A DNA stretch of 64,000 bases from a virus. Its lineage: Duplodnaviria > Heunggongvirae > Uroviricota > Caudoviricetes. The DNA lies in the IMG/VR virus record IMGVR_UViG_3300035696_000002; one strand, 5' to 3'. The notes under the pieces are model-generated. The model worked only from the letters and a program-made list of their open reading frames with translations. It was not told where the DNA came from and did no database searches. Positions 5,096 through 17,424 of the stretch are shown here, piece by piece (position 1 is the first letter of the stretch; each line of letters starts with the position of its first letter). The position numbers were made by a program, and so were the translations under genes.

Positions 5096-6157
5096 TGGAC
5101 AACGAAGGATTCACTTCGATGGAGTTTGAAAAACTCAAAGCGATGCTGGAACGGTCTGGCATTCCGTTCACGGTGGAAGACACCGGAGAAAGGCTCGAAT
5201 ACTTCAAGGTGCCGGGCGGGAAAATTATTCATCTTGAAGTCGGCACCCACGACCATGACAAGCTGGTGGGCTACCTCGGCTTCATGGCCGAGTTCATGTT
5301 CGACGCGAACGGCTCGCTAGTCAAAGCGGGAATTTGGGAATGAGCGTAAAACTTTTAAGGGAGCCATTCACCGCCACAAAGTTTGATGGCACCAAATACT
5401 TTACTGTCATCGCCACAGGCAATGGCATGATTGTTCAGAATCTTCGCCGCAAGAAACCAGCTATAGAACTCGCACGACTTATGAACGAGGCCTTCAAACT
5501 CGGGTATGATTCTGGTTTCAAAAACGGACGGGCGAAACGAATCGTCGCCTTCGACTTTTAAGGAACAAAGATGAGTGAATGCACACACTTTCAGAAAATA
5601 CACCTTTGCAGTAACGGCCCCTCCAGCGGAGGCTCCTACTTCTGGTGCCCTAACTGCGGATGTCTGGGGCGTGAACGATCCATAGTGCGGCAACGACAAC
5701 TGTTCGTTGAACTGTTGTGGCGGAGTCCCGACGCAGAGTTTGTCGATCCTGATTTCCCGGAACGCTTGGCCCTGACCTAATGCGAAAAACTGGTGCCCGT
5801 AAAACACGCCGGAGCGAATTGACGAAGCAGCAACTCGTCAAATTGGCCATGAACAAAGTGCGTGGGTTGAACAAGAAGGAACTGCGGAAATTTGTGTTCG
5901 ACACGAATTGCTGCCCCCACGAGAACACGCACCCCTGCGGGATGGACACGGTCTGTAGCGACTGCGGAGATTGGGTATGATCCGCATCAACGTCGCTCTG
6001 AAGCCCTGCAAATGGTGCACGGACGAGAAGAGAATGTGGTTCAAGCACGTAGGCTACTATGCTGGTATCTACGGGGCAGAAACGATCATCCCCAAATGGC
6101 TCAAATGTCTTTGGTGCGGGAGACTTGTTGATTACACCGAAATCTGGGAGCGAGCCC

Positions 6158-7971: not shown

Positions 7972-8045
7972 GGGGGTGTCGGTTAATGGCAAACCAGCGG
8001 TCTCCAAAACCGTGACTGGGGGTTCAAGTCCCTCCACCCCCGCCA
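7972..8045 (+). tRNA. tRNA-Trp(CCA)
   Basis: Cloverleaf, anticodon loop CTCCAAA, encoded CCA. Confidence 0.95.
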
Positions 8046-8064
8046 AAAGATTGAGGCGGAGATT

Positions 8065-8692
8065 ATGGAATTGAAGATTGAACAGCAGACGCGAGGCACC
8101 CGCATCCTGCGGGGGGAGTCAGCTACCCGGAGGCGACTTCATCTCATCTAGTCTCGCAACAGCAGCGACGGCAGCCGGGTACGAGGAAATCGTACTCCCG
8201 TCGCTAGAGCCAGCCGCTCTCTACGCTGAAAAGGCTGGCCCTGAGATTCTGGGACAGATGTACTGCTTCCCGGACAAGAAAGGCAGGCAGTTGTGCCTGC
8301 GACCGGAAGGAACGGCGACCTGTCAGATACTCGCCGACACGGTAATGAAAATGGAGCGAGACGTGAAGCTCTGGTATCTGACGACCTGTTGGCGTTACGA
8401 ACGACCACAGGCTGGGCGGTACCGGGAGTTCACACAGTTCGGGGTGGAAATCCTGAACCCACGCGGCCCCGTCCGGGATGAGTTAGTGGCTTTGGCCGAA
8501 AGCATGGTGCGGCAGTTCACGGATCAGTATGAAGTGAACGCGGCAGTCAAGCGGGGGCTGGCCTACTACGTCGAGGATGGCTTCGAAATCAGTTGCCCGG
8601 CACTGGGGGCTCAGAAGCAAGTCTGCGGCGGCGGTTCATACAAGCAAGGCTGCGGTTTCGCAATTGGGGTAGATCGCATGATGCTTGTGTGA
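8065..8692 (+). CDS. histidyl-tRNA synthetase-like catalytic domain (no anticodon-binding domain); +1 frame break near 8137-8147
   Basis: RGTR N-terminus, GYEEIVLP, LRPEGT, WRYERPQAGRYREFTQFGVE, GGGSY, GFAIGVDR. Confidence 0.85.
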
Positions 8693-8697
8693 CGTAT

Positions 8698-8774
8698 GGT
8701 GGGCGTAGCTTAATGGTTAAAGCATCTGGCTGTGAACCAGAAGGTTGCGGGTTCGATTCCCGTCGCCCACCCCA
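8698..8774 (+). tRNA. tRNA-His(GTG)
   Basis: Cloverleaf, G-1/C73, CCA. Confidence 0.95.
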
Positions 8775-8785
8775 AAATTTTATAT

Positions 8786-8863
8786 GGTGTCATTGGTGTA
8801 GGGGCTTATCACGGCGGACTGTGAATCCGCTATTCGTGGGTTCGAATCCCACATGACACCCCA
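8786..8863 (+). tRNA. tRNA-His(GTG), second divergent copy
   Basis: Cloverleaf, G-1/C73, CCA. Confidence 0.9.
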
Positions 8864-8879
8864 AGATTGGAAGTGCACC

Positions 8880-9032
8880 ATGTGGTACGACGACAACGTG
8901 TGCGAAGTTTGCGGGTTGGAAAAGCCGGACGTTCGTGAACGCGAGTGCGGTTACTCGATGGAACTGACTGGCGAAGTGCACTTGGAAGTTATTTGCGATG
9001 ACTGCGAACACCAGCATTGCATGGACGTGTAG
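8880..9032 (+). CDS. small Cys-rich protein (50 aa)
   Basis: CEVC..CDDC; stop codon lies inside the next tRNA. Confidence 0.5.
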   Translation: MWYDDNVCEVCGLEKPDVRERECGYSMELTGEVHLEVICDDCEHQHCMDV

Positions 9033-9099
9033 CTCAGTTGGATAGAGCGTTCCCCTCCGAAGGGAAAGGTCGCAGGTTCGACTCCTGCCATGTCCACCA
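9023..9099 (+). tRNA. tRNA-Arg(CCG)
   Basis: Cloverleaf, loop CTCCGAA, CCA. Confidence 0.95.
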
Positions 9100-9103
9100 G
9101 TTT

Positions 9104-9343
9104 ATGAGTAGAACATTTACAATTCACGATACGGAACTCGCTACGTTCGAGAAGTTCAAGGCAGAGCACGAACCAAAGTGCGTCTACCACGGCGACACGA
9201 TGGCGAATCCGGGGCACATTCGGTACTTCACGCCGACATCGGCGTACACGATTATGTTCAAGCCGACAGGCGTCGGTGACGGCGTGCATGTGAAGTGCCT
9301 TTGCGGTGAAGAGGTAGACATCACCGATTACGAATTGTGGTAG
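9104..9343 (+). CDS. hypothetical protein
   Basis: ORF between tRNAs; PTGVG..VKC.CGEE.DITDY..W. Confidence 0.65.
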   Translation: MSRTFTIHDTELATFEKFKAEHEPKCVYHGDTMANPGHIRYFTPTSAYTIMFKPTGVGDGVHVKCLCGEEVDITDYELW

Positions 9344-9347
9344 TTTT

Positions 9348-9424
9348 GCTCGTGTAGCTCAACAGGAGAGAGCGTACCCCTGCGAAGGGTAAGATTTGTG
9401 GTTCGAGTCCACTCACGAGTACCA
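9348..9424 (+). tRNA. tRNA-Arg(GCG)
   Basis: Cloverleaf, loop CTGCGAA, CCA. Confidence 0.9.
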
Positions 9425-9435
9425 TTTTAGATTTT

Positions 9436-9513
9436 GCCCGGTTACCCATTGGACATGGGGCCTCGTCTTCGAAACGAGGACGCTCAAGGGTTCGAATCCC
9501 TTACCGGGTTCCA
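9436..9513 (+). tRNA. tRNA-Arg(TCG)
   Basis: Cloverleaf, loop CTTCGAA, CCA. Confidence 0.9.
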
Positions 9514-9589
9514 GATTTTGGTCTGACACACGCTGGTGTCAGCGTAAGCGAGGGTCGCCGTAATCAGTCGCCCTTCGGCCATGAAGTTT

Positions 9590-9666
9590 GTTTCCGTAGC
9601 TCAACTGGATAGAGTACGTGGCTACGAACCACGGGGTTGGGGGTTCGAATCCCTCCGGGAACACCA
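9590..9666 (+). tRNA. tRNA-Arg(ACG)
   Basis: Cloverleaf, loop CTACGAA, CCA. Confidence 0.95.
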
Positions 9667-9679
9667 GATGTTGTAACAT

Positions 9680-9766
9680 TGGGATGTAGAGCGTAATTGG
9701 TAGCGTGCACGGCTGTTAACCGTGTGTCGAAAGACCTTGTAGGTTCGAGCCCTACCGTCCCAGCCA
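9680..9766 (+). tRNA. tRNA-Asn(GTT) with long variable arm
   Basis: Loop CTGTTAA; variable hairpin GTC-GAAA-GAC; CCA. Confidence 0.88.
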
Positions 9767-9783
9767 AATTCATAGGAGGCGTT

Positions 9784-10038
9784 ATAGGCAAACAGAAGGA
9801 AGTGAAATTCAGCGTCAGGGTCAGCGACCATGACTACGGTTACAGAGTCGAGCAGGTGAAGCGATTTCTGGCCAAGAAGCATAGTGTTTTGGCTGTGGTG
9901 CAGTTTAAGGGGCGTGAGATCACACATCCCGAACTTGGGCAAGAGTTGTTGGCCCGGCTGCTAACCGATCTGGGGAGAAACGGAACTCCCGTCCTGAAGG
10001 GACGATCACTTCAAGTTCTGATTACGCCTAAGAGTTGA
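9784..10038 (+). CDS. infC: translation initiation factor IF-3, C-terminal domain only (probable ATA start)
   Basis: KEVKF..DHD..RFL..FKGREITHPELG; AGGAGG SD upstream of ATA. Confidence 0.8.
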   Translation: MGKQKEVKFSVRVSDHDYGYRVEQVKRFLAKKHSVLAVVQFKGREITHPELGQELLARLLTDLGRNGTPVLKGRSLQVLITPKS

Positions 10039-10115
10039 GCGGTGCCGTAGAAGGCAACCCTGTTCAATAGGAGGGCAGAGACCAAAGCGGTACTGCTCAA
10101 AAAGTTTTGATGTAT

Positions 10116-10203
10116 TGGGAAGTAGGAAAATTGGCAACCCCAGAGGATTCTGAATCCTCCGTGCTTAAGCACACTGAAGGTTCGAATCCTTCCTTCCCAG
10201 CCA
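10116..10203 (+). tRNA. tRNA-Gln(CTG) with long variable arm
   Basis: Loop TTCTGAA; variable hairpin GTGC-TTAA-GCAC; CCA. Confidence 0.88.
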
Positions 10204-10216
10204 AGTTTAGGAGTCG

Positions 10217-10286
10217 TGGACTGTAGCTTAGTTGGCAGAGCACCCCCGGCAAGGGGGAGACGCGGGTTCGATTCCCGCCAGCCCGA
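10217..10286 (+). ncRNA. tRNA-like RNA with 5-nt anticodon loop, no CCA
   Basis: Canonical D and T arms; CCCCC-GGCAA-GGGGG arm. Confidence 0.65.
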
Positions 10287-10369
10287 ATACGAACGACTCT
10301 TAGTGCTGAGAGTGGACGAGGATTTGTCCTGATCGTATCGGGACGTAGAATTGTCCGCTCTCGTTGCAT

Positions 10370-10444
10370 TCCTCGGTAGCTCAGGGGTAGAGCAGGTGGC
10401 TGTTAACCACCCTGTCGGAGGTTCGAATCCTTCCCGAGGAGCCA
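10370..10444 (+). tRNA. tRNA-Asn(GTT)
   Basis: Cloverleaf, CCA. Confidence 0.95.
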
Positions 10445-10446
10445 AG

Positions 10447-10547
10447 TTAGGTTAGAAGGTCGCGGACACAGGAACCGCCTCTCGTGTACTGTACGCTTCG
10501 GCTATCGACAGAGGACGGGTGTAGCTCAGGGAGAGCATCTAACCTGA
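10447..10547 (+). ncRNA. circularly permuted tRNA-like RNA (YrlA Y-RNA-like topology)
   Basis: TAGGTTAGA/TCTAACCTG closing stem, then AGGTC, T-like arm, looped acceptor stem, TAGCTCAGGGAGAGCA D arm. Confidence 0.6.
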
Positions 10548-10560
10548 AAGTTTGAAGCTG

Positions 10561-10628
10561 GGGGGCGTAGCTCAATGGTAGAGCAGCCCACACAAGGGAA
10601 GATGCGGGTTCGAGTCCCGCCGCCCCCA
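10561..10628 (+). ncRNA. tRNA-like RNA with degenerate anticodon arm, no CCA
   Basis: Perfect acceptor, D and T arms; shortened anticodon arm. Confidence 0.65.
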
Positions 10629-10716
10629 TAAGGCTTCATTAAAGGGCCAGAGATAGACCGGGACGCCGGGAACGTCGTGAAATCCTCATAGGCCCCACGT
10701 GATTAGAAGTAAAGCT

Positions 10717-10793
10717 GGGTGTGTGGTGTCAACGGCTAACATATCTCCCTCTTAAGGAGCAAGATGCTGGTTCAAATCCAGTCACACCCACCA
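10717..10793 (+). tRNA. tRNA-Lys(CTT)
   Basis: Loop CTCTTAA, CCA. Confidence 0.9.
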
Positions 10794-10814
10794 AGTTTGT
10801 GTTAGAGTGAAGTC

Positions 10815-11627
10815 ATGTTGCATCACGTAATTCAGAAGGACATGTTTCACGAGTTCGGGTTTCATACTCTGATTCGTGCGATGGAAGAAAACGAAGTCCC
10901 GTATTGCGTGGTGAAGATCATCCCGTTCAGTCATGAACTGACGTGGGAGTCAGGTGTGCCGCTGCCGGAGAGCACGGTGCCGACAATGATCTGGGGCATG
11001 ACCTGTGTTGAGGAAGTCGCCGGAGTAAGACAATGGACGCCCGGCGTGTTCAAGAACGAGAATTTCGATTTGCGTGTGATCGGCGAGAGGTACGGCGAGA
11101 ACATGCTGAATGCCGACGCGAAGTTTTGCAGGCTGGGGGATATTCCAGCGTTTGAGGGATCGGCATTCATTCGCCCGGTACACGACACAAAGTCGTTTAC
11201 CGGAGCCCTTATCAATGGCGAAGACCTGCGAACTTGGCAGGATCAGCTAATGCAGTTGAAGGGTGAGTTCACGACGTTGAGTCTGGACACCCCGGTGCTG
11301 TACGCCAGCCCGAAGAAGATTGATACTGAGTGTCGCTTCTTTGTGGTGGATGGAAAAGTTATCACTGGTAGTTCGTATCGGGTTAACGGTAGAGTATTAT
11401 ACAAGAGGGTGAACGCCGACAACCCGATGTGCATCCCCCTGAGGGAGTTTGCACAGAGAATGGTTGACCAGTGGCAACCTGTTGAAGCATTCGTGATCGA
11501 CATCGGACGAGTCGGCCAAGAATGCAAAGTGATCGAGATCAACTGCTTGAATTCGTCGGGGTTTTACGACTCGGACATGGCGGCGGTGGTCAGGGCGATC
11601 ACGAATTTACCAAGTTTGGATCGGTAG
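10815..11627 (+). CDS. ATP-grasp domain protein (DUF4343-like)
   Basis: FIRP..DTKSFTG, ECRFFVVDGKVITGS.Y, FVIDI..KVIEIN..NSSGFY. Confidence 0.8.
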   Translation: MLHHVIQKDMFHEFGFHTLIRAMEENEVPYCVVKIIPFSHELTWESGVPLPESTVPTMIWGMTCVEEVAGVRQWTPGVFKNENFDLRVIGERYGENMLNADAKFCRLGDIPAFEGSAFIRPVHDTKSFTGALINGEDLRTWQDQLMQLKGEFTTLSLDTPVLYASPKKIDTECRFFVVDGKVITGSSYRVNGRVLYKRVNADNPMCIPLREFAQRMVDQWQPVEAFVIDIGRVGQECKVIEINCLNSSGFYDSDMAAVVRAITNLPSLDR

Positions 11628-11693
11628 CTCAATTGGCAGAGCAGGTGACTCTTAATCATCAGGTTGGGGGTTCGATTCCCTCCCGGTTCACCA
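11618..11693 (+). tRNA. tRNA-Lys(CTT)
   Basis: Cloverleaf, CCA. Confidence 0.95.
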
Positions 11694-11696
11694 ATT

Positions 11697-11765
11697 TTAC
11701 GGGTCGCTTAGAAGACGGAAGCAGGCGGCGGTACCGCCGTTGCGGGTTCAATGTCCGCCCCGTGA
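11697..11765 (+). ncRNA. tRNA-like RNA with 5-nt anticodon loop, no CCA
   Basis: GCTT/AAGC D stem, GGCGG-CGGTA-CCGCC arm, GCGGG-TTCAATG-TCCGC T arm. Confidence 0.55.
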
Positions 11766-12486
11766 ATTCGGGTCGAAGGCTAAATGCCTGATTGTTCCCG
11801 TGGACACCCAAACGAAAGAGGCGTGACCAAGCCGGAGAGTCGGCACCAGTTTTATGCGAAAGACGTGTCCCAGTTGTCTCGGTGATGACGCAGCAGAGCG
11901 AGAAGGCCGGAATTTCGACCCTCTCTATGGCACCGTAGAGATTTACTGCACGTACTGTGGCTCGTTTGTGGACATGATCTGGCGATGGCAGACAGACGAT
12001 TCGGTCTGGCAAAAGTTTAAGGAACAAGCGAGGGGATATGTGGGGTGCTCCTGAGGACGTGCCGGGTCGTTGTAACGCCCGGCTTTTTGTTGGGGACGAT
12101 TATGGCGACAACACCGCGACGTTCATGTGCGAGTTAGACCCCGGCCACGAAGGTAAGCACCGGGAAGTCTTCCGCGATGGCACAGCGGTCATAGAGTGGG
12201 AGACCGATGAGAGGCAGACCGGGAACGATCCTGACCTGTAAGGATTTTGCGGATTTGGGCATCGAATGTTGCGAGGCCTGCCACGACGTAGAGAATCTTG
12301 ACCCGCTTTTACGGATCAGGGTCGATGGGCAGGAAGCCCTAGTTTGTTGTGAAATAATGGCATTTTTCTACCCTGACGAAGCAGATCAGGCGGATTTTTG
12401 GCAAGCTCAAATGGACGAGGCCGAGGCGTTAAACCCACCAAAGCCAGAGGACTTTGAAAACCCTGAATAGAAGGGGAATTGATTTT

Positions 12487-13035
12487 ATGGCTGACACTCT
12501 AGTACTTGACATGTCGGGAACCCCAATCGGGTTCGTTTCTTGGCAGCGGGCTGTGAAGCTCTACTGGGAAGACCGTGCCGTCATCGTGGATGATGACGCA
12601 AACCGGATTCTCCACTCGCCGTCCTTCGAAATGAACATGCCGACCGTCATCCGTGCTAAGAACTGGGTGCAGCGTCGGAAGAAGGAACGTGTCCCGTTCT
12701 CGCGTCGCAACATCGCGATCCGCGACAACAGCCGTTGCCAGTACTGCAATAAGCTGTTGCAGACGGCCCAGTACACGATGGATCACGTCATCCCTCGTTG
12801 CAAGGGCGGAACGTCTACGTGGACGAACCTCGTGCTTGCTTGCATCCGTTGCAACAAGTACAAGTCTGGTTGCACGCCGGAGGAGGCAGGTATGCATCTG
12901 TTGAAGCAGCCTATCGAGCCGAAGGCAGATGACCCGAAGTACAACTTCAAGCTTCGGATCAAGAAGATGCACCCGACGTGGAAGCCGTGGGTCGATGGCG
13001 GCTGGCTGTACTGGAACATCGAACTGGACAAGTAG
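12487..13035 (+). CDS. HNH endonuclease (McrA/HNH_5-like)
   Basis: FSRRNI..RD..CQYC..TMDHVIPR..GG...WTNLV.AC..CN..K. Confidence 0.9.
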   Translation: MADTLVLDMSGTPIGFVSWQRAVKLYWEDRAVIVDDDANRILHSPSFEMNMPTVIRAKNWVQRRKKERVPFSRRNIAIRDNSRCQYCNKLLQTAQYTMDHVIPRCKGGTSTWTNLVLACIRCNKYKSGCTPEEAGMHLLKQPIEPKADDPKYNFKLRIKKMHPTWKPWVDGGWLYWNIELDK

Positions 13036-13456
13036 GAGAAGTCATGAGCCTAGTGCTAAGCGGCGATTTTTGCGGCTGTGAGAAGCATCATGGCTCATGG
13101 CACTCCAACTGCCCCGAGTGTGACACGGAAGAGGGCAAGTCCTGCTGGAAGTTTTTGCACGTGCAACTACCGTGCGGTAAGTGCGATAATTGCATTCGCA
13201 ACGGGAACAAGCCGTATGATTGGCGTAAGGAAATGCTGGGCGGGGAGTTTACCGAAAGTTTCATCGCTTGAAGGAGCCTTATGGACGTTGACAGTATTCG
13301 CAAGTTGGGCATTAGCAGCAGCCTCGGAGACAAGGAAACAGTAGCTCTCTTCGAGAAGTTGATCGCATACGGCTGGATTGACGGGGCCGGGCGGTCGTTA
13401 CCGTGGACGGCTCATCTTCGCCGCAAGGATCGTGCAGCGGCAGCGGGGCGTGAGTA

Positions 13457-13714
13457 ATGCCGTACAACTACCCCGGCTTACTTCGCAGCGAAGACACCAA
13501 CGACCACGATTGGCGGATTGTGTGTGATGTGCTGGATGCAGCCATCGCTCACTGGAAAAAGCGGAGCGAAACCGAGAGTGATTTGTTCGGTTCGGCCTAC
13601 GGTCATCACTACGTAGGGGCTCTCACAGAAGTTCAGATCGCGTTACTCGGCGGCGAAAGCGACAACGTCGATGAGAAGGCGATTGAGGCCATGATTAAGG
13701 CCGCAAAAGTTTGA
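13457..13714 (+). CDS. hypothetical protein
   Basis: TAATG-coupled ORF. Confidence 0.55.
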   Translation: MPYNYPGLLRSEDTNDHDWRIVCDVLDAAIAHWKKRSETESDLFGSAYGHHYVGALTEVQIALLGGESDNVDEKAIEAMIKAAKV

Positions 13715-13800
13715 TCCCGTAGTCTAGTTGGACAAGGCAGCGGTTTCCTAAACCGCAGAGCGAAAGCTCATCGGGGGTTCGAATCCCTCCGGGATCACCA
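13713..13800 (+). tRNA. tRNA-Arg(CCT) with long variable arm
   Basis: Loop TTCCTAA; variable hairpin GAGC-GAAA-GCTC; CCA. Confidence 0.9.
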
Positions 13801-13821
13801 TTTTGATTGCAGGAGCACGCG

Positions 13822-14094
13822 ATGTTTAAGACGATGCAGTTGGTTTATCGGAACATGGTTTGGAACCGCCCGAAGATCGGGCTGTGGGGTTTGATCGTAG
13901 TCGCGTTAGTGGCCACGACAGACCTGTACTTCAGCATTTTGCGGATCGGTGGGGGCCGGGTAACTGCTGGCGTATTCGCCGCCTTCGCACTGAGCTTCTG
14001 GTTCGTCGGGTTGCCAATGGTTCTGACACTGATCGACCTGAAGATGAAGCCCCAGAGGATGGAAAAAATCTGGGCACAGATGCACAAGCAGTAA
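13822..14094 (+). CDS. small membrane protein
   Basis: AGGAG SD; two hydrophobic helices. Confidence 0.6.
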   Translation: MFKTMQLVYRNMVWNRPKIGLWGLIVVALVATTDLYFSILRIGGGRVTAGVFAAFALSFWFVGLPMVLTLIDLKMKPQRMEKIWAQMHKQ

Positions 14095-14100
14095 ACGTTT

Positions 14101-14174
14101 TGCCCCTTCGTTCAACGGCAGGACACTTGGCTCTGAACCAAGGTATGGTGGTTCGAATCCATCAGGGGCAGCCA
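14101..14174 (+). tRNA. tRNA-Gln(CTG)
   Basis: Cloverleaf, CCA. Confidence 0.95.
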
Positions 14175-14661
14175 AGTTTTGGGCTTCAGAATCCATTTGT
14201 ATATGGAACTGAAACCGTATAAGATCGTTGCAATGCCGTTCGCACAATCTGACGCGACCGCCGAATACACGGAGTATGCGATCAGCGAAGATCAGGCCTT
14301 GCGAAATTTTGAACGACGTTACCCGGCGTACCGGGTTAAAGAAGTAAGGGAAGCGTGAGCAAGTACGACGGAACAATTTGCAACGACTGTAACACCGAGA
14401 TTTATCAGGACAAGTGCAACTGTGATTATTACCGGGCACACCCTGAGGCAACCTTACCCGAGAATGAAACATCTAGGGAGATAGGTCGCAGGATTCGAGA
14501 AGACTTTGGCGATGAGATCGCCGGAGCATTGAAATAGATTATGACCATGCTAAACTACATGCCGCTGATTGCCGCAACCGAGATCATGGTTCTCGTTGTG
14601 CCCCGCCTCGTCTTCGCGATTGCCGCGACTCCTCTCAGACGAAAACGCTAACCCAATCCTT

Positions 14662-14743
14662 GGGGGCGTAGACTCGTGGTCTTCTAAACCATAAGAGCTT
14701 AACCGGACTGAAAATGTGGGTTCGAATCCCACCGCTCCCTCCA
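14662..14743 (+). tRNA. non-canonical tRNA-Arg(TCT) lacking the D arm
   Basis: Acceptor, anticodon and T arms plus CCA intact; 7 nt in place of the D arm; 23-nt variable region. Confidence 0.7.
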
Positions 14744-14760
14744 TACCTTTGCGTACCTTT

Positions 14761-14835
14761 GCCTCCGTAGCTTAACGGTAAAGCTACCGCCTTTTAAGCG
14801 GATAGATGGGGGTTCGATTCCCTCCGGGGGTACCA
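14761..14835 (+). tRNA. tRNA-Lys(TTT)
   Basis: Cloverleaf, CCA. Confidence 0.92.
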
Positions 14836-14837
14836 AT

Positions 14838-14917
14838 GGGGGTGTAACTCAATCGGGTCAAGAGTACCCGGCTTTTAACCGGGAAGTTGCAGGCAACCCA
14901 ATCTGCCGCCCCCACCA
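14838..14917 (+). tRNA. tRNA-Lys(TTT) with aberrant T loop
   Basis: Loop CTTTTAA, T loop CAACCCAA, CCA. Confidence 0.8.
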
Positions 14918-15655: not shown

Positions 15656-15738
15656 TACCAACCGGAAAAAGATAAAACAAGAAATAGTTTCTGTGGTACG
15701 TTTGTTTCGTGGACACATTCCACAGACAAAGGGTATAT

Positions 15739-16326
15739 ATGTCAAAAGCTGCTGTAAAGGAACAAGCAATTGAGGTAAAACGGTTGGATATTCGTTCTAT
15801 CCGGCTGACGCTCGAAGGCGATTCACCGCTCATTTCCCACAAGTGGGCGGAAAAGGCAAAAAAGGAAATGCTCGACAAGCAGATGAAGAAGGCCAAGACT
15901 GCTAAGGAAGCAAAAGACCCCGAGAAGGACTACAAGGATAGCCTGTATGAGTATCCGGGCGGCGGTTTTGGTTTCCCAACGATTGGCGTCAAGGCTGCTG
16001 CGGTCACCGCTGCTGCTCAATGCGACATGTTCAAAACTGACGCACGTGCAGCATTCCACATCGACGGCGATCTGGTTAAGATCGACGGCGAACCGGAGAT
16101 GCGGGAAGACATGGTGCGAGTTGGCATGGGCACTGCGGACATCCGCTATCGCGGCATGTTCCCCAAGTGGAGGACAACCTTCACGCTCAAGTACAACGCA
16201 TCCGTGTTGTCTGCTGAGCAGATCGTGAACTTGTTCAACGCTGCGGGATTCGGCGTTGGCATCGGTGAGTGGCGTCCCCAGAAGAACGGGTCGTTCGGTC
16301 GCTTTCACGTTGCAAACGAAGCGTAA
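15739..16326 (+). CDS. stand-alone Cas7/RAMP-superfamily-like protein
   Basis: L.G.SPLI.H start, FP..GVK helix, IRYR..F..W, C-terminal G-rich loop AGFGVGIGEWRPQKNGSFGRF. Confidence 0.75.
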   Translation: MSKAAVKEQAIEVKRLDIRSIRLTLEGDSPLISHKWAEKAKKEMLDKQMKKAKTAKEAKDPEKDYKDSLYEYPGGGFGFPTIGVKAAAVTAAAQCDMFKTDARAAFHIDGDLVKIDGEPEMREDMVRVGMGTADIRYRGMFPKWRTTFTLKYNASVLSAEQIVNLFNAAGFGVGIGEWRPQKNGSFGRFHVANEA

Positions 16327-16331
16327 CAGAA

Positions 16332-16360
16332 ACCGGGGCCTAACCGCCCCGGTAGTTTTT
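16332..16360 (+). terminator. hairpin/terminator after the RAMP gene
   Basis: ACCGGGGC/GCCCCGGT followed by AGTTTTT. Confidence 0.65.
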
Positions 16361-16368
16361 ATAAGCGA

Positions 16369-16589
16369 GGTAGGGCAGGCTTGGCATGGTACGGCGGGGA
16401 GAGGCGAGGTCAGGCATGGCAGGTATGGCGTGGTAAGGTCGGGTGAGGCGAGATCGGGGCTAGGCGGGGCAGGCGTGGTGCGGTAAGGTGTGGTCGGGTC
16501 TGGTAAGGCGTGGTTGGGTAGGGCAGGCAAGGTGAGGTGAGGCGGGGAGAGGTGAGGTATGGTTAGGCCCGGCGTGGCAGGCGAGGTGT
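16369..16589 (+). repeat. GGY-NN pentamer array 1 (putative guide ncRNA), about 40 units with 5 GGCA separators
   Basis: Parsed directly: near-invariant GGY with a variable NN every 5 nt. Confidence 0.9.
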
Positions 16590-16614
16590 GATAAAATCAT
16601 TTTGAGGTGGAGCT

Positions 16615-17091
16615 ATGGTTTACAAATGGAAAGCAGCAGCACAGATCAAAGGACTCGATCCGCAAGTTTGTGGCGACCGGATGGAGTACATCAAGAAAAC
16701 AGTTGGAGCCGTAACAGCAGAAACAGTTCTTGAAGATGCCCGCAACATTAACTCGCCCCTGCACGGTGGTTTCACATGGGACGACAACGAAGCAGCAGAA
16801 CAGCACCGCCTCAATGAGGCACGATATCTTCTTCGTCAGATTGTGATCTACGAGGAGCCCAAAGAACCGGAAGGCGAACCTACGATTATTCGTGCGTTCG
16901 TAAATGTTCAGGAAGAAAACCAGCCGGATGCAACCTATGTTGATATAACGACGGCGATGAGCGATCCAAAATTGCGTGAGCAGATTTTGGAGCGAGCATA
17001 CCGCGAGCTTACGGCGTGGAAAGTTCGTTACGAAGAGTTTGAAGAGTTCGCACGGGTCGTCAAAGCAATCAACTCAGTGAAGCTGAAATAG
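16615..17091 (+). CDS. hypothetical partner protein between the two arrays
   Basis: GAGGTGGAG SD; V.EDAR...SPLH..FTWDD..AAEQHRL..AR.L motif. Confidence 0.8.
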   Translation: MVYKWKAAAQIKGLDPQVCGDRMEYIKKTVGAVTAETVLEDARNINSPLHGGFTWDDNEAAEQHRLNEARYLLRQIVIYEEPKEPEGEPTIIRAFVNVQEENQPDATYVDITTAMSDPKLREQILERAYRELTAWKVRYEEFEEFARVVKAINSVKLK

Positions 17092-17118
17092 GCGACCGCT
17101 GCGGAGTAGAGCGAAACG

Positions 17119-17396
17119 GGCGTGGTGAGGTACGGCACGGCTAGGTATGGCCCGGTTTGGCGTGGCAGGCGTGGTGTGGCGTGGCCCGTCGCGGTCTGGT
17201 GTGGTAAGGTAGGGTTAGGTATGGCAGGCGAGGTAAGGCGGGGATAGGCATGGTGCGGTGCGGCACGGCAGGTGAGGTGAGGTGAGGCGGGCTGGGCGAG
17301 GCATGTTTGGGCGGGGCGAGGCAGGCGGGGCTGGGCTGCGTATGGCATGGTCGGCAGGGTCAGGTCGGGTTTGGCATGGCAGGCACGGATCGGATA
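17119..17396 (+). repeat. GGY-NN pentamer array 2 (putative guide ncRNA), about 50 units with GGCA separators
   Basis: Same grammar as array 1 with different NN content. Confidence 0.9.
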
Positions 17397-17424
17397 AACC
17401 CCCTGAGTTCAGGGGGTTTCCTAT
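17396..17424 (+). terminator. terminator hairpin closing array 2
   Basis: AAACCCCCTGA/TCAGGGGGTTT. Confidence 0.8.

Follow-up and report, generated by a model that had tools for sequence, protein, structure and literature searches.

The locus described here lies in a window of 64,000 nucleotides (the whole stretch of DNA analysed), which belongs to the 463-kb genome of a jumbo phage from a metagenome. All of its genes, arrays and hairpins are on the plus strand. The vipr gene (15739..16326) encodes a lone Cas7-like RAMP protein of 195 aa that is assigned to phrog_4652 and to no Pfam family. It is followed by a terminator-like GC hairpin with a T run (16332..16353), vrRNA array 1 (16369..16589), a putative vap-like accessory gene (16615..17091), vrRNA array 2 (17119..17396) and a terminator-like hairpin closing array 2 (17400..17416). 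The accessory gene, located between the two arrays, encodes a product of 158 aa (phrog_15946) with no Pfam family and no sequence match in PDB; in relatives with genes called, an ORF of 135-173 aa, compared by position and length, is present directly after vipr. No sigma-70-like promoter was found upstream of vipr, a result that is uninformative for a jumbo phage, and the RNA fold of the vipr leader is indistinguishable from those of shuffled sequences (z -1.0).

Both arrays are composed of GGY-NN pentamers, 94 units on the vipr strand, with a pyrimidine at position 3 in 89 of them and with diverse NN doublets. The pentamers are organized into segments ending in GGCAG, and the last G of the closing GGCAG is also the first G of the next segment. 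At the sequence level, this staggered arrangement corresponds to the 1-nt overlap of successive vrRNAs in the staggered arrays of fig. S18 of bioRxiv 10.64898/2026.04.26.720920. The segments delimited by GGCAG are regarded here as putative vrRNA units. Among 641 in-frame segments of the family, 43% end in GGCAG, with a median length of 6 units for such segments, and in most of 80 related loci the arrays are located downstream of vipr on the same strand.

VIPR, a CRISPR-like RNA-guided DNA silencer, was first described in 2026 (bioRxiv 10.64898/2026.04.26.720920, 10.64898/2026.04.26.720927). The locus is almost certainly a VIPR system, consisting of the Vipr protein, the putative accessory gene and the GGY/NN guide arrays, and its subtype is the phage-borne, staggered-array one. 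The identification is based on the Cas7/Csm3 fold, the homology with the SUSP1 Vipr in PDB, the 94 GGY-NN units on the vipr strand and the GGCAG punctuation with its 1-nt overlaps. The protein has more than 7,700 homologues, and the family profile hits the PDB chain 36pp_D, ‘SUSP1 Vipr protein’ (E 3.5e-8), over the G-loop, where GvGeWRP..GRF is aligned with GvGdWRP..GRF of SUSP1 Vipr, together with the YR thumb arginine. A tblastn search of Vipr against SUSP2 and Felixounavirus phages gave E values of about 3e-4, and the AF2 model (pLDDT 84.5) has Csm3/Cas7 as the top Foldseek matches (E 2e-5, probability 1.0). The protein is a minimal RAMP (Cas7-like RRM core, G-loop and thumb) homologous to a characterised Vipr, and the original prediction, made from the letters alone, was right to call its gene a RAMP gene.

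That prediction also proposed that two bases are read per pentamer, that one target base is then skipped, that either strand can be matched and that the target is dsDNA. This is the VIPR code as already published, and is not new; since both the system and its gapped code have been published, the main claim is a rediscovery. The reading rule itself is right: it equals the published code, and one guide of array 2 follows it over its full length at external targets, as described below. The conclusion on dsDNA agrees with published experiments on other VIPR systems, although its derivation from two partial matches on both strands was weak.

The guide in question is A2s1 (17119..17168), with the doublets GT GA AC AC TA AT CC TT GT followed by the GGCAG terminator. 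All nine doublets (17119-17163) are matched, 18/18, at four homologous ORFs (L093, L094, L096 and L097) in a metagenome collection; in L094 the matched site is 5132-5157. The matched sequences encode TNGIYVVS, and the skipped bases vary between loci and sit at codon third positions, so that for the one guide with an assigned target the pattern NNxNNx is found with the skipped bases on the codon wobble. As A2s1 reads codon positions 1-2 only, synonymous changes at third positions would leave the match intact. The full-length ORFs L093, L094 and L097 are assigned to tail-fibre and virion-structural PHROGs, and L096, located at the end of a contig, is a fragment of 25 codons. A2s1 is probably aimed primarily at tail-fibre-like genes of other phages, and it provides a clean natural example of the VIPR code, reading codon positions 1-2 of the conserved TNGIYVVS motif. 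No homologue of the targeted tail-fibre domain was found in the own genome at E<=0.01, A2s1 has no match in IMG/VR, and no other guide of the window reaches 80% on the tail-fibre contigs.

Could the guides also recognize the gene of their own effector? The original prediction pointed to a site at the vipr start (15725..15742), which covers the RBS AAAGGG (15728-15733) and the start codon (15739-15741). We confirmed both matches at this site, each of which skips one base per step. Units 4-9 of A2s1 (17134-17163; GGCAC GGCTA GGTAT GGCCC GGTTT GGCGT) carry the doublets AC TA AT CC TT GT, which match the minus strand of 15726-15742 at 12/12, that is, its reverse complement read as AC-a-TA-t-AT-a-CC-c-TT-t-GT. 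The second guide, A2s4 (17227..17271), has the doublets GA AA GG TA AT GC GC AC followed by GGCAG, and its units 1-5 (17227-17251; GA AA GG TA AT) match the plus strand of 15725-15738 at 10/10. As claimed, the remaining doublets do not match (0/6 for A2s1 and 1/6 for A2s4). Consequently, the whole-guide identity to the own site is 12/18 for A2s1 and 11/16 for A2s4, or 13/20 and 11/18 with the terminal AG counted. The median GGCAG-ended segment has 6 units, so a match of six units is as long as a typical whole guide. The two guides together specify 17/18 bases of the site: 15727, 15730, 15733, 15736, 15739 and 15741-42 are read only by A2s1, while 15725, 15728, 15731, 15734 and 15737 are read only by A2s4. 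Since A2s4 reads 15725 and the bases skipped by A2s1 (15728, 15731, 15734 and 15737), the second match is not implied by the first. The site is unique in the 463-kb genome even at 3 mismatches, and neither its 18-mer nor the full A1s5 guide has a match in IMG/VR.

The self-match suggests self-regulation, and we put the chances of autoregulation of vipr through partial matching, as read from the sequence, at even or slightly below. By analogy with the published systems, Vipr protomers would coat the guide, hide its GGY bases and present the NN doublets, which would pair with dsDNA with every third target base skipped, and the bound DNA would be silenced. The vipr start would then be a selected, partially complementary operator for the six 3' doublets of A2s1 and the five 5' doublets of A2s4, whose matches lie in overlapping registers on opposite strands of the RBS and start. 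Complexes of Vipr and guide, once assembled, would bind weakly at the 5' end of vipr and lower its expression, so that protein and guide RNA stay balanced, in the manner of CreR and the long-form tracrRNA for Cas genes. Binding at a match of 6 of 9 doublets is postulated in this model, as are repression and its direction. It is possible, if somewhat doubtful, that VIPR feeds back in this way on its own effector via 5-6 contiguous doublets below the identity threshold, and that a single guide has a dual use, the full match silencing a rival tail-fibre gene and the 3'-proximal partial match throttling vipr.

Several observations argue for the self-regulation of vipr. The partial complementarity of own-locus guides to the effector 5' region exceeds chance, the site has the very position at which binding of a complex would block the RBS and the start codon, and published VIPR complexes silence from either strand. 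In addition, the cryo-EM series of SUSP1, which includes 5-subunit intermediates, indicates that filaments and R-loops nucleate at the guide 3' end, and the A2s1 match uses the 3'-proximal units, corresponding to this nucleation end. However, in A2s4 the matching units are at the 5' end and those at the 3' end are mismatched, so that the wrong end would be paired if 3' nucleation were obligatory. The whole-guide identities of 0.67-0.69 are also below the criterion of at least 0.8 used in both VIPR target papers, whose authors found no self-hit at that level.

The pairing of guide and operator is neither conserved nor covarying in related loci, which also speaks against the claim of the original prediction that the system autorepresses: besides the identity of 67-69% against at least 80%, the match is absent in the closest relatives and there is no enrichment in about 72 loci. 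In the closest relatives, with 75-85% identical Vipr (L090, L170, L172 and L173), the 5' regions are unrelated and runs of at least 5 doublets do not occur. A self-match at p 0.003 is confined, among the 43 non-redundant entries for relatives, to a single locus, represented by L032 and the near-identical copy L046; among 30 further loci there is one at p<=0.05, with 1.5 expected. SUSP2 has no comparable self-match, and L089, a second copy of the present locus from another sample, is identical and consequently gives no information on covariation. A pattern of own guides on the own -10 box in the ‘cctaacctcaa’ subfamily (L032, L053, L057, L006 and L065; post hoc Fisher p 9e-4) was rejected, as it was not reproduced in six new members (p 0.42).

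The guides may instead serve only against other phages, the self-matches being functionless and tolerated below the binding threshold, an explanation that we regard as rather unlikely. It accords with the perfect external targets of A2s1 and with the position of both self-matches below 0.8. In this case, the target of A2s4 may be the vipr start of a close rival that has the RBS in common but begins with ATG GCN GCN ACN AGN (MAAT[S/R]), and the half-match to the own gene would stem from common ancestry combined with built-in self-avoidance. The doublets AT-GC-GC-AC-AG, which form the 3' half of A2s4, do read ATG GCN GCN ACN AGN when third positions are skipped, ATGGCTGCTAC is frequent as a start among family members (e.g., L013, L022, L028 and L029), and an October 2026 preprint describes vrRNAs against early codons of rivals' vipr with lower scores for the self-match. 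However, shared ancestry would leave the 12-base match of A2s1 to the vipr leader as a coincidence of about 5e-4, and the search for a rival carrying the predicted sequence found none. In IMG/VR, the 16-base pattern of the whole A2s4 has 8 matches, which lie in unrelated contexts and represent background, so that no external target is assigned to this guide; the relaxed pattern GGNTANATGGCNGCNACNAG, searched for a rival vipr start, gave 28 matches, none of them beside a Vipr homologue. Guides of the window have no run of at least 6 doublets in 80 related loci. Nor is there a signal that guides of the family are aimed at the VIPR loci of relatives, since 338 guides against 81 loci gave 93 runs of six at gap 1, compared with 84 and 82 at gaps 0 and 2, respectively.

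Pure coincidence, that is, two partial matches on a low-complexity leader (AAAGGG TATATAT) at one of many VIPR loci inspected, is very unlikely, and the self-match is in all likelihood non-random. The original prediction held that two such matches are improbable by chance and would be refuted if shuffled arrays did equally well near the gene start. In 100,000 shuffles of the arrays under each of three schemes, a 6-doublet run occurred in 15680-15760 in 18-28 cases, and two different segments with runs of at least 5 in 0-2 cases, so the prediction survived its own test. A 5-run in the vipr start region is present for 2 of the 8 own guides but for none of the 385 unique real guides taken from other VIPR loci, and the gap controls (0, 2 and 3) gave no run of at least 5 at the vipr start. 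At gap 1, the whole 463-kb genome contains three 6-doublet runs and 42 five-doublet runs, and the vipr start is the only place in it where two guides overlap. On the other side, neither match is complete, and gap-1 patterns, whose period of 3 bases is also that of coding DNA, have more background genome-wide (45 runs against 19-29 at other gaps). A cluster of different guides appears somewhere in the genome in 5.5% of 3000 shuffles, and the feature was not seen in the roughly 72 relatives. In addition, with many VIPR loci inspected, the present one was picked as the most striking. Whole-guide scores do not single out the site either: in the 463-kb genome, no guide of at least 8 doublets reaches 80% at gap 1, the score distributions at gap 1 are like those of the controls at gaps 0 and 2, and dozens of other sites equal or exceed the vipr-start site in identity. 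Against coincidence, the two-guide event in the pre-specified 81-bp region occurs in at most 2 of 100,000 shuffles, the second match requires five further specified bases, and even when multiplied by about 100 inspected loci the probability is still about 1e-3 to 5e-3.

Least probable of all is regulation at the RNA level, in which A2s1, whose doublets match the minus strand so that the RNA can pair with the coding strand and the vipr mRNA, would block translation over the Shine-Dalgarno sequence and AUG like an antisense RNA, with A2s4 (mRNA sense) irrelevant; published cryo-EM indicates that Vipr-vrRNA can pair with ssRNA, but mostly as 7-subunit partial complexes, incompletely assembled and with no stabilising third strand, the published silencing is transcriptional, and the 10/10 match of A2s4 would be left as a coincidence of about 1e-3.

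Statistically, the self-match at the vipr start is robust; such a feature has not been described in the VIPR preprints (10.64898/2026.04.26.720920, 10.64898/2026.04.26.720927 and 10.64898/2026.10.15.759431), the two of April 2026 reporting no self-hits of at least 80%. If it works as self-regulation of vipr, VIPR would have its first known regulatory circuit. Then 5-6 contiguous doublets would suffice for binding, a matter of consequence for predicting off-targets and designing VIPR tools. VIPR binding would depend on contiguity and position instead of overall identity, and one class of regulatory sites would escape the present target predictions.

Compared with known systems, the locus resembles the staggered-array VIPR of 10.64898/2026.04.26.720920 (fig. 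S18) in its lone Cas7-like protein, its one small putative accessory gene, its same-strand GGY-NN arrays with 1-nt overlaps and its phage-borne location. [quoted passage not shown] Unlike published VIPR, it is carried by a 463-kb jumbo phage from a metagenome, its arrays flank the accessory gene, its segments have no obvious 3' pseudoknot tail and are punctuated by GGCAG, and two of its guides have contiguous sub-threshold matches to the own RBS and start. The footprint on the first codons and 5' end of vipr, as well as the sub-threshold score of the self-match, are similar to those of the vipr-targeting solo vrRNAs in SUSP1-family phages (bioRxiv 10.64898/2026.10.15.759431). However, those vrRNAs reach at least 0.8 against the vipr of rivals, and the phages that carry them have lost vipr. 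Here the own vipr is matched, at an identity of 0.67-0.69, and no rival vipr with a better match was found.

Autorepression by guides that pair over part of their length is also familiar from CRISPR. The long-form tracrRNA (tracr-L) of Workman et al. 2021 reportedly autorepresses Cas by partial complementarity. A further precedent is given by CreR and crRNA-like RNAs (bioRxiv 10.1101/2023.03.10.532045). In those systems, the repressing guides come from dedicated degenerate mini-arrays that are conserved in related loci, and experiments have demonstrated the repression; in the present locus, perfect external targets exist for one of the guides as well, and the predicted pairing is not conserved. 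As with CreR and tracr-L, partial pairing of an own-locus guide would take place at the 5' end or promoter of the effector gene; in CreR and tracr-L, the effector thereby binds and represses without full targeting.

The VIPR systems described in 2026 combine a lone RAMP protein with adjoining arrays of GGY/NN pentamers; Vipr protomers coat the guide RNA (vrRNA), whose NN doublets base-pair with double-stranded DNA and skip one target base per unit (bioRxiv 10.64898/2026.04.26.720920). Targets may lie on either strand and need no PAM, and the result is transcriptional silencing, mostly directed at rival mobile elements (10.64898/2026.04.26.720920). The filament and R-loop extend 3' to 5' in the cryo-EM mechanism (10.64898/2026.04.26.720927), and solo guides are directed against early codons of rivals' vipr genes, self-match being reduced (10.64898/2026.10.15.759431). 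The window locus almost certainly belongs to these systems. Its Vipr family profile matches PDB 36pp_D, "SUSP1 Vipr protein", across the G-loop (E 3.5e-8), and the AlphaFold model of its Vipr (pLDDT 84.5) best matches Csm3/Cas7 chains (E 2e-5), which bears out the RAMP label of the original prediction; tblastn with the protein reaches SUSP2 and relatives. Full-length homologues of about 41% identity (E 1e-33 to 1e-38) occur in cultured actinophages, including Mycobacterium phages Quico, Donkeykong, Pippy and others and Gordonia phage UmaThurman, where they are annotated merely as hypothetical proteins; these phages could be tractable models for this Vipr branch.

The phage genome containing the window is 463,033 bp long. 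Downstream of a block of 18 tRNA genes (7972-14911, Rfam scan), the vipr ORF (15739-16326, 195 aa, phrog_4652, without Pfam family) is followed by a GC hairpin with a T run (16332-16353), array 1 of GG-periodic pentamers (16369-16589), a 158-aa ORF (16615-17091, phrog_15946), array 2 (17119-17396) and another hairpin (17400-17416). Of 80 related IMG/VR loci, most have their arrays downstream of vipr on the same strand; a relative 75% identical has a GGY-NN array directly 5' of vipr (L173:3350-3500) plus a downstream array, so array placement varies within the clade. Position 3 is C or T in 89 of the 94 units of both arrays, and positions 4-5 vary. In-frame segments close with GGCAG, whose final G also serves as the opening G of the segment that follows; fig. 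S18 of 10.64898/2026.04.26.720920 mentions "staggered arrays", in which there are 1-nt overlaps. Among 641 unique in-frame segments, taken from the window (16369-17396) and from about 150 related loci, 43% close with GGCAG, a family-wide segment terminator; since its AG is unmatched at natural targets of the guide segment A2s1, it behaves as a handle or processing signal, not as a reading unit.

Two guide segments of array 2 match the start of vipr itself, exactly as had been noted from the sequence. Units 4-9 of A2s1 (17119-17168; AC TA AT CC TT GT) are the reverse complement of 15726-15742, two bases on and one off (12/12), and units 1-5 of A2s4 (17227-17271; GA AA GG TA AT) are the plus strand of 15725-15738 (10/10), the site spanning the ribosome-binding site AAAGGG and the ATG. 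The remaining doublets do not match, also as first read, and whole-guide identity is 12/18 for A2s1 and 11/16 for A2s4, or 13/20 and 11/18 with the terminal AG. Allowing three mismatches brings up no second copy of the site in the genome. The bases read by A2s4 are exactly those skipped by A2s1, plus one flanking base; therefore, the two matches are non-redundant, and 17 of the 18 positions are specified jointly. A 7-bp inverted repeat (TCTGTGG ... CCACAGA, 15690-15726) extends as far as the site's first bases; the vipr leader RNA folds no better than shuffles (z -1.0). Relatives of the 'cctaacc' subfamily also carry a hairpin between promoter-like box and ribosome-binding site.

Then, could the self-matches be a functionless by-product of guides directed at rivals? 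The full nine-doublet pattern of A2s1 (17119-17163) has no exact match in IMG/VR and six in a metagenome collection. Four of these (18/18; contigs L093:184-209, L094:5132-5157, L096:6-31 and L097:1550-1575) lie in homologous ORFs in the same frame and encode T-N-G-I-Y-V-V-S, every skipped base being a codon third position that varies between loci. The full-length ORFs of L093, L094 and L097 match tail fibre or virion structural PHROGs across the motif region; the L096 ORF is a fragment of 25 codons that lies at the end of its contig. With these perfect targets in other phages and no homologue of the tail-fibre-like domain in the phage's own genome, A2s1 is evidently an ordinary anti-rival guide, which favours the by-product. 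For A2s4, no convincing external target was found; its 3' half would spell ATG GCN GCN ACN AGN, a common Vipr N-terminus, which points the same way, but a search for a rival with such a start adjoining a Vipr gene found none, and we regard the by-product as rather unlikely.

Coincidence was assessed by run counts, a run being a series of contiguous matching doublets. Genome-wide, gap 1 gives 42 five-doublet and three six-doublet runs, gap 0 gives 19 and none, and gap 2 gives 28 and one; only at the vipr start do gap 1 runs of two guides overlap, and gaps 0, 2 and 3 give no run of five or more in that region. Doublets were shuffled by three schemes, with 100,000 shuffles per scheme: a six-run fell within 15680-15760 in 18-28 per 100,000 shuffles, and runs of at least five from two different segments in 0-2 per 100,000; the shuffle and gap controls proposed with the original prediction, the former as its possible refutation, leave the observation standing. 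None of 385 decoys of real composition (unique guides from other family loci) has a five-run there, versus two of the eight own guides. An inter-guide cluster arises somewhere in the genome in 5.5% of shuffles, which lends coincidence some support and means that the rarity is due mainly to location; against the two-segment and decoy counts, however, coincidence is improbable, and we are confident that chance does not account for the self-match under any reasonable correction. An RNA-level variant of self-regulation is less probable still.

Autorepression is, tentatively and at close to even probability, the best single explanation for two guides jointly specifying the leader of their own effector gene. 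The site's placement, which covers ribosome-binding site and start codon, counts for it, together with the run statistics, as does the published silencing from either strand (10.64898/2026.04.26.720920). A2s1 matches through its 3'-proximal units, and SUSP1 complexes nucleate at the guide 3' end, with five-subunit intermediates (10.64898/2026.04.26.720927). Because GGCAG-ending segments of the Vipr family have a median length of six units, a run of six doublets has the length of a typical guide. For Cas genes, autorepression via partial complementarity is established (bioRxiv 10.1101/2023.03.10.532045).

Against autorepression, the self-match identity of 0.67-0.69 falls short of the 0.8 that the VIPR papers require; these find no self-hits at that level (10.64898/2026.04.26.720920), and many other genome sites equal or exceed the vipr start when ranked by identity score. 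A2s4 matches via the wrong end, opposite to 3' nucleation. In the four closest relatives the leader differs and the self-match is missing, and SUSP2 gives no self-match signal; among 43 non-redundant relative entries, p 0.003 is reached only by one locus, present as L032 and the near-identical L046, and one of 30 further loci has p<=0.05 (1.5 expected). In the Vipr subfamily of L032, L053, L057 and L192, promoter-like box, hairpin, 'cctaacctcaa', GGAG and ATG follow one another, and own guides match the -10-like box in runs of 4-5 doublets (L032:3927-3940, L053:434-444, L057:3920-3930, and -78..-68 from the vipr start in L192), guide doublets differing as the box differs (post hoc p ~1e-3). 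This pattern is unsupported, since it was not replicated in six newly fetched members with region and strand fixed beforehand (Fisher p 0.42).

Sub-threshold self-targeting is the one potentially new feature of the window locus. The two-read/one-skipped code and double-stranded DNA target originally deduced were right and correspond to the VIPR code (10.64898/2026.04.26.720920); this code and the RAMP protein, which the locus shares with VIPR systems, have both been published already.
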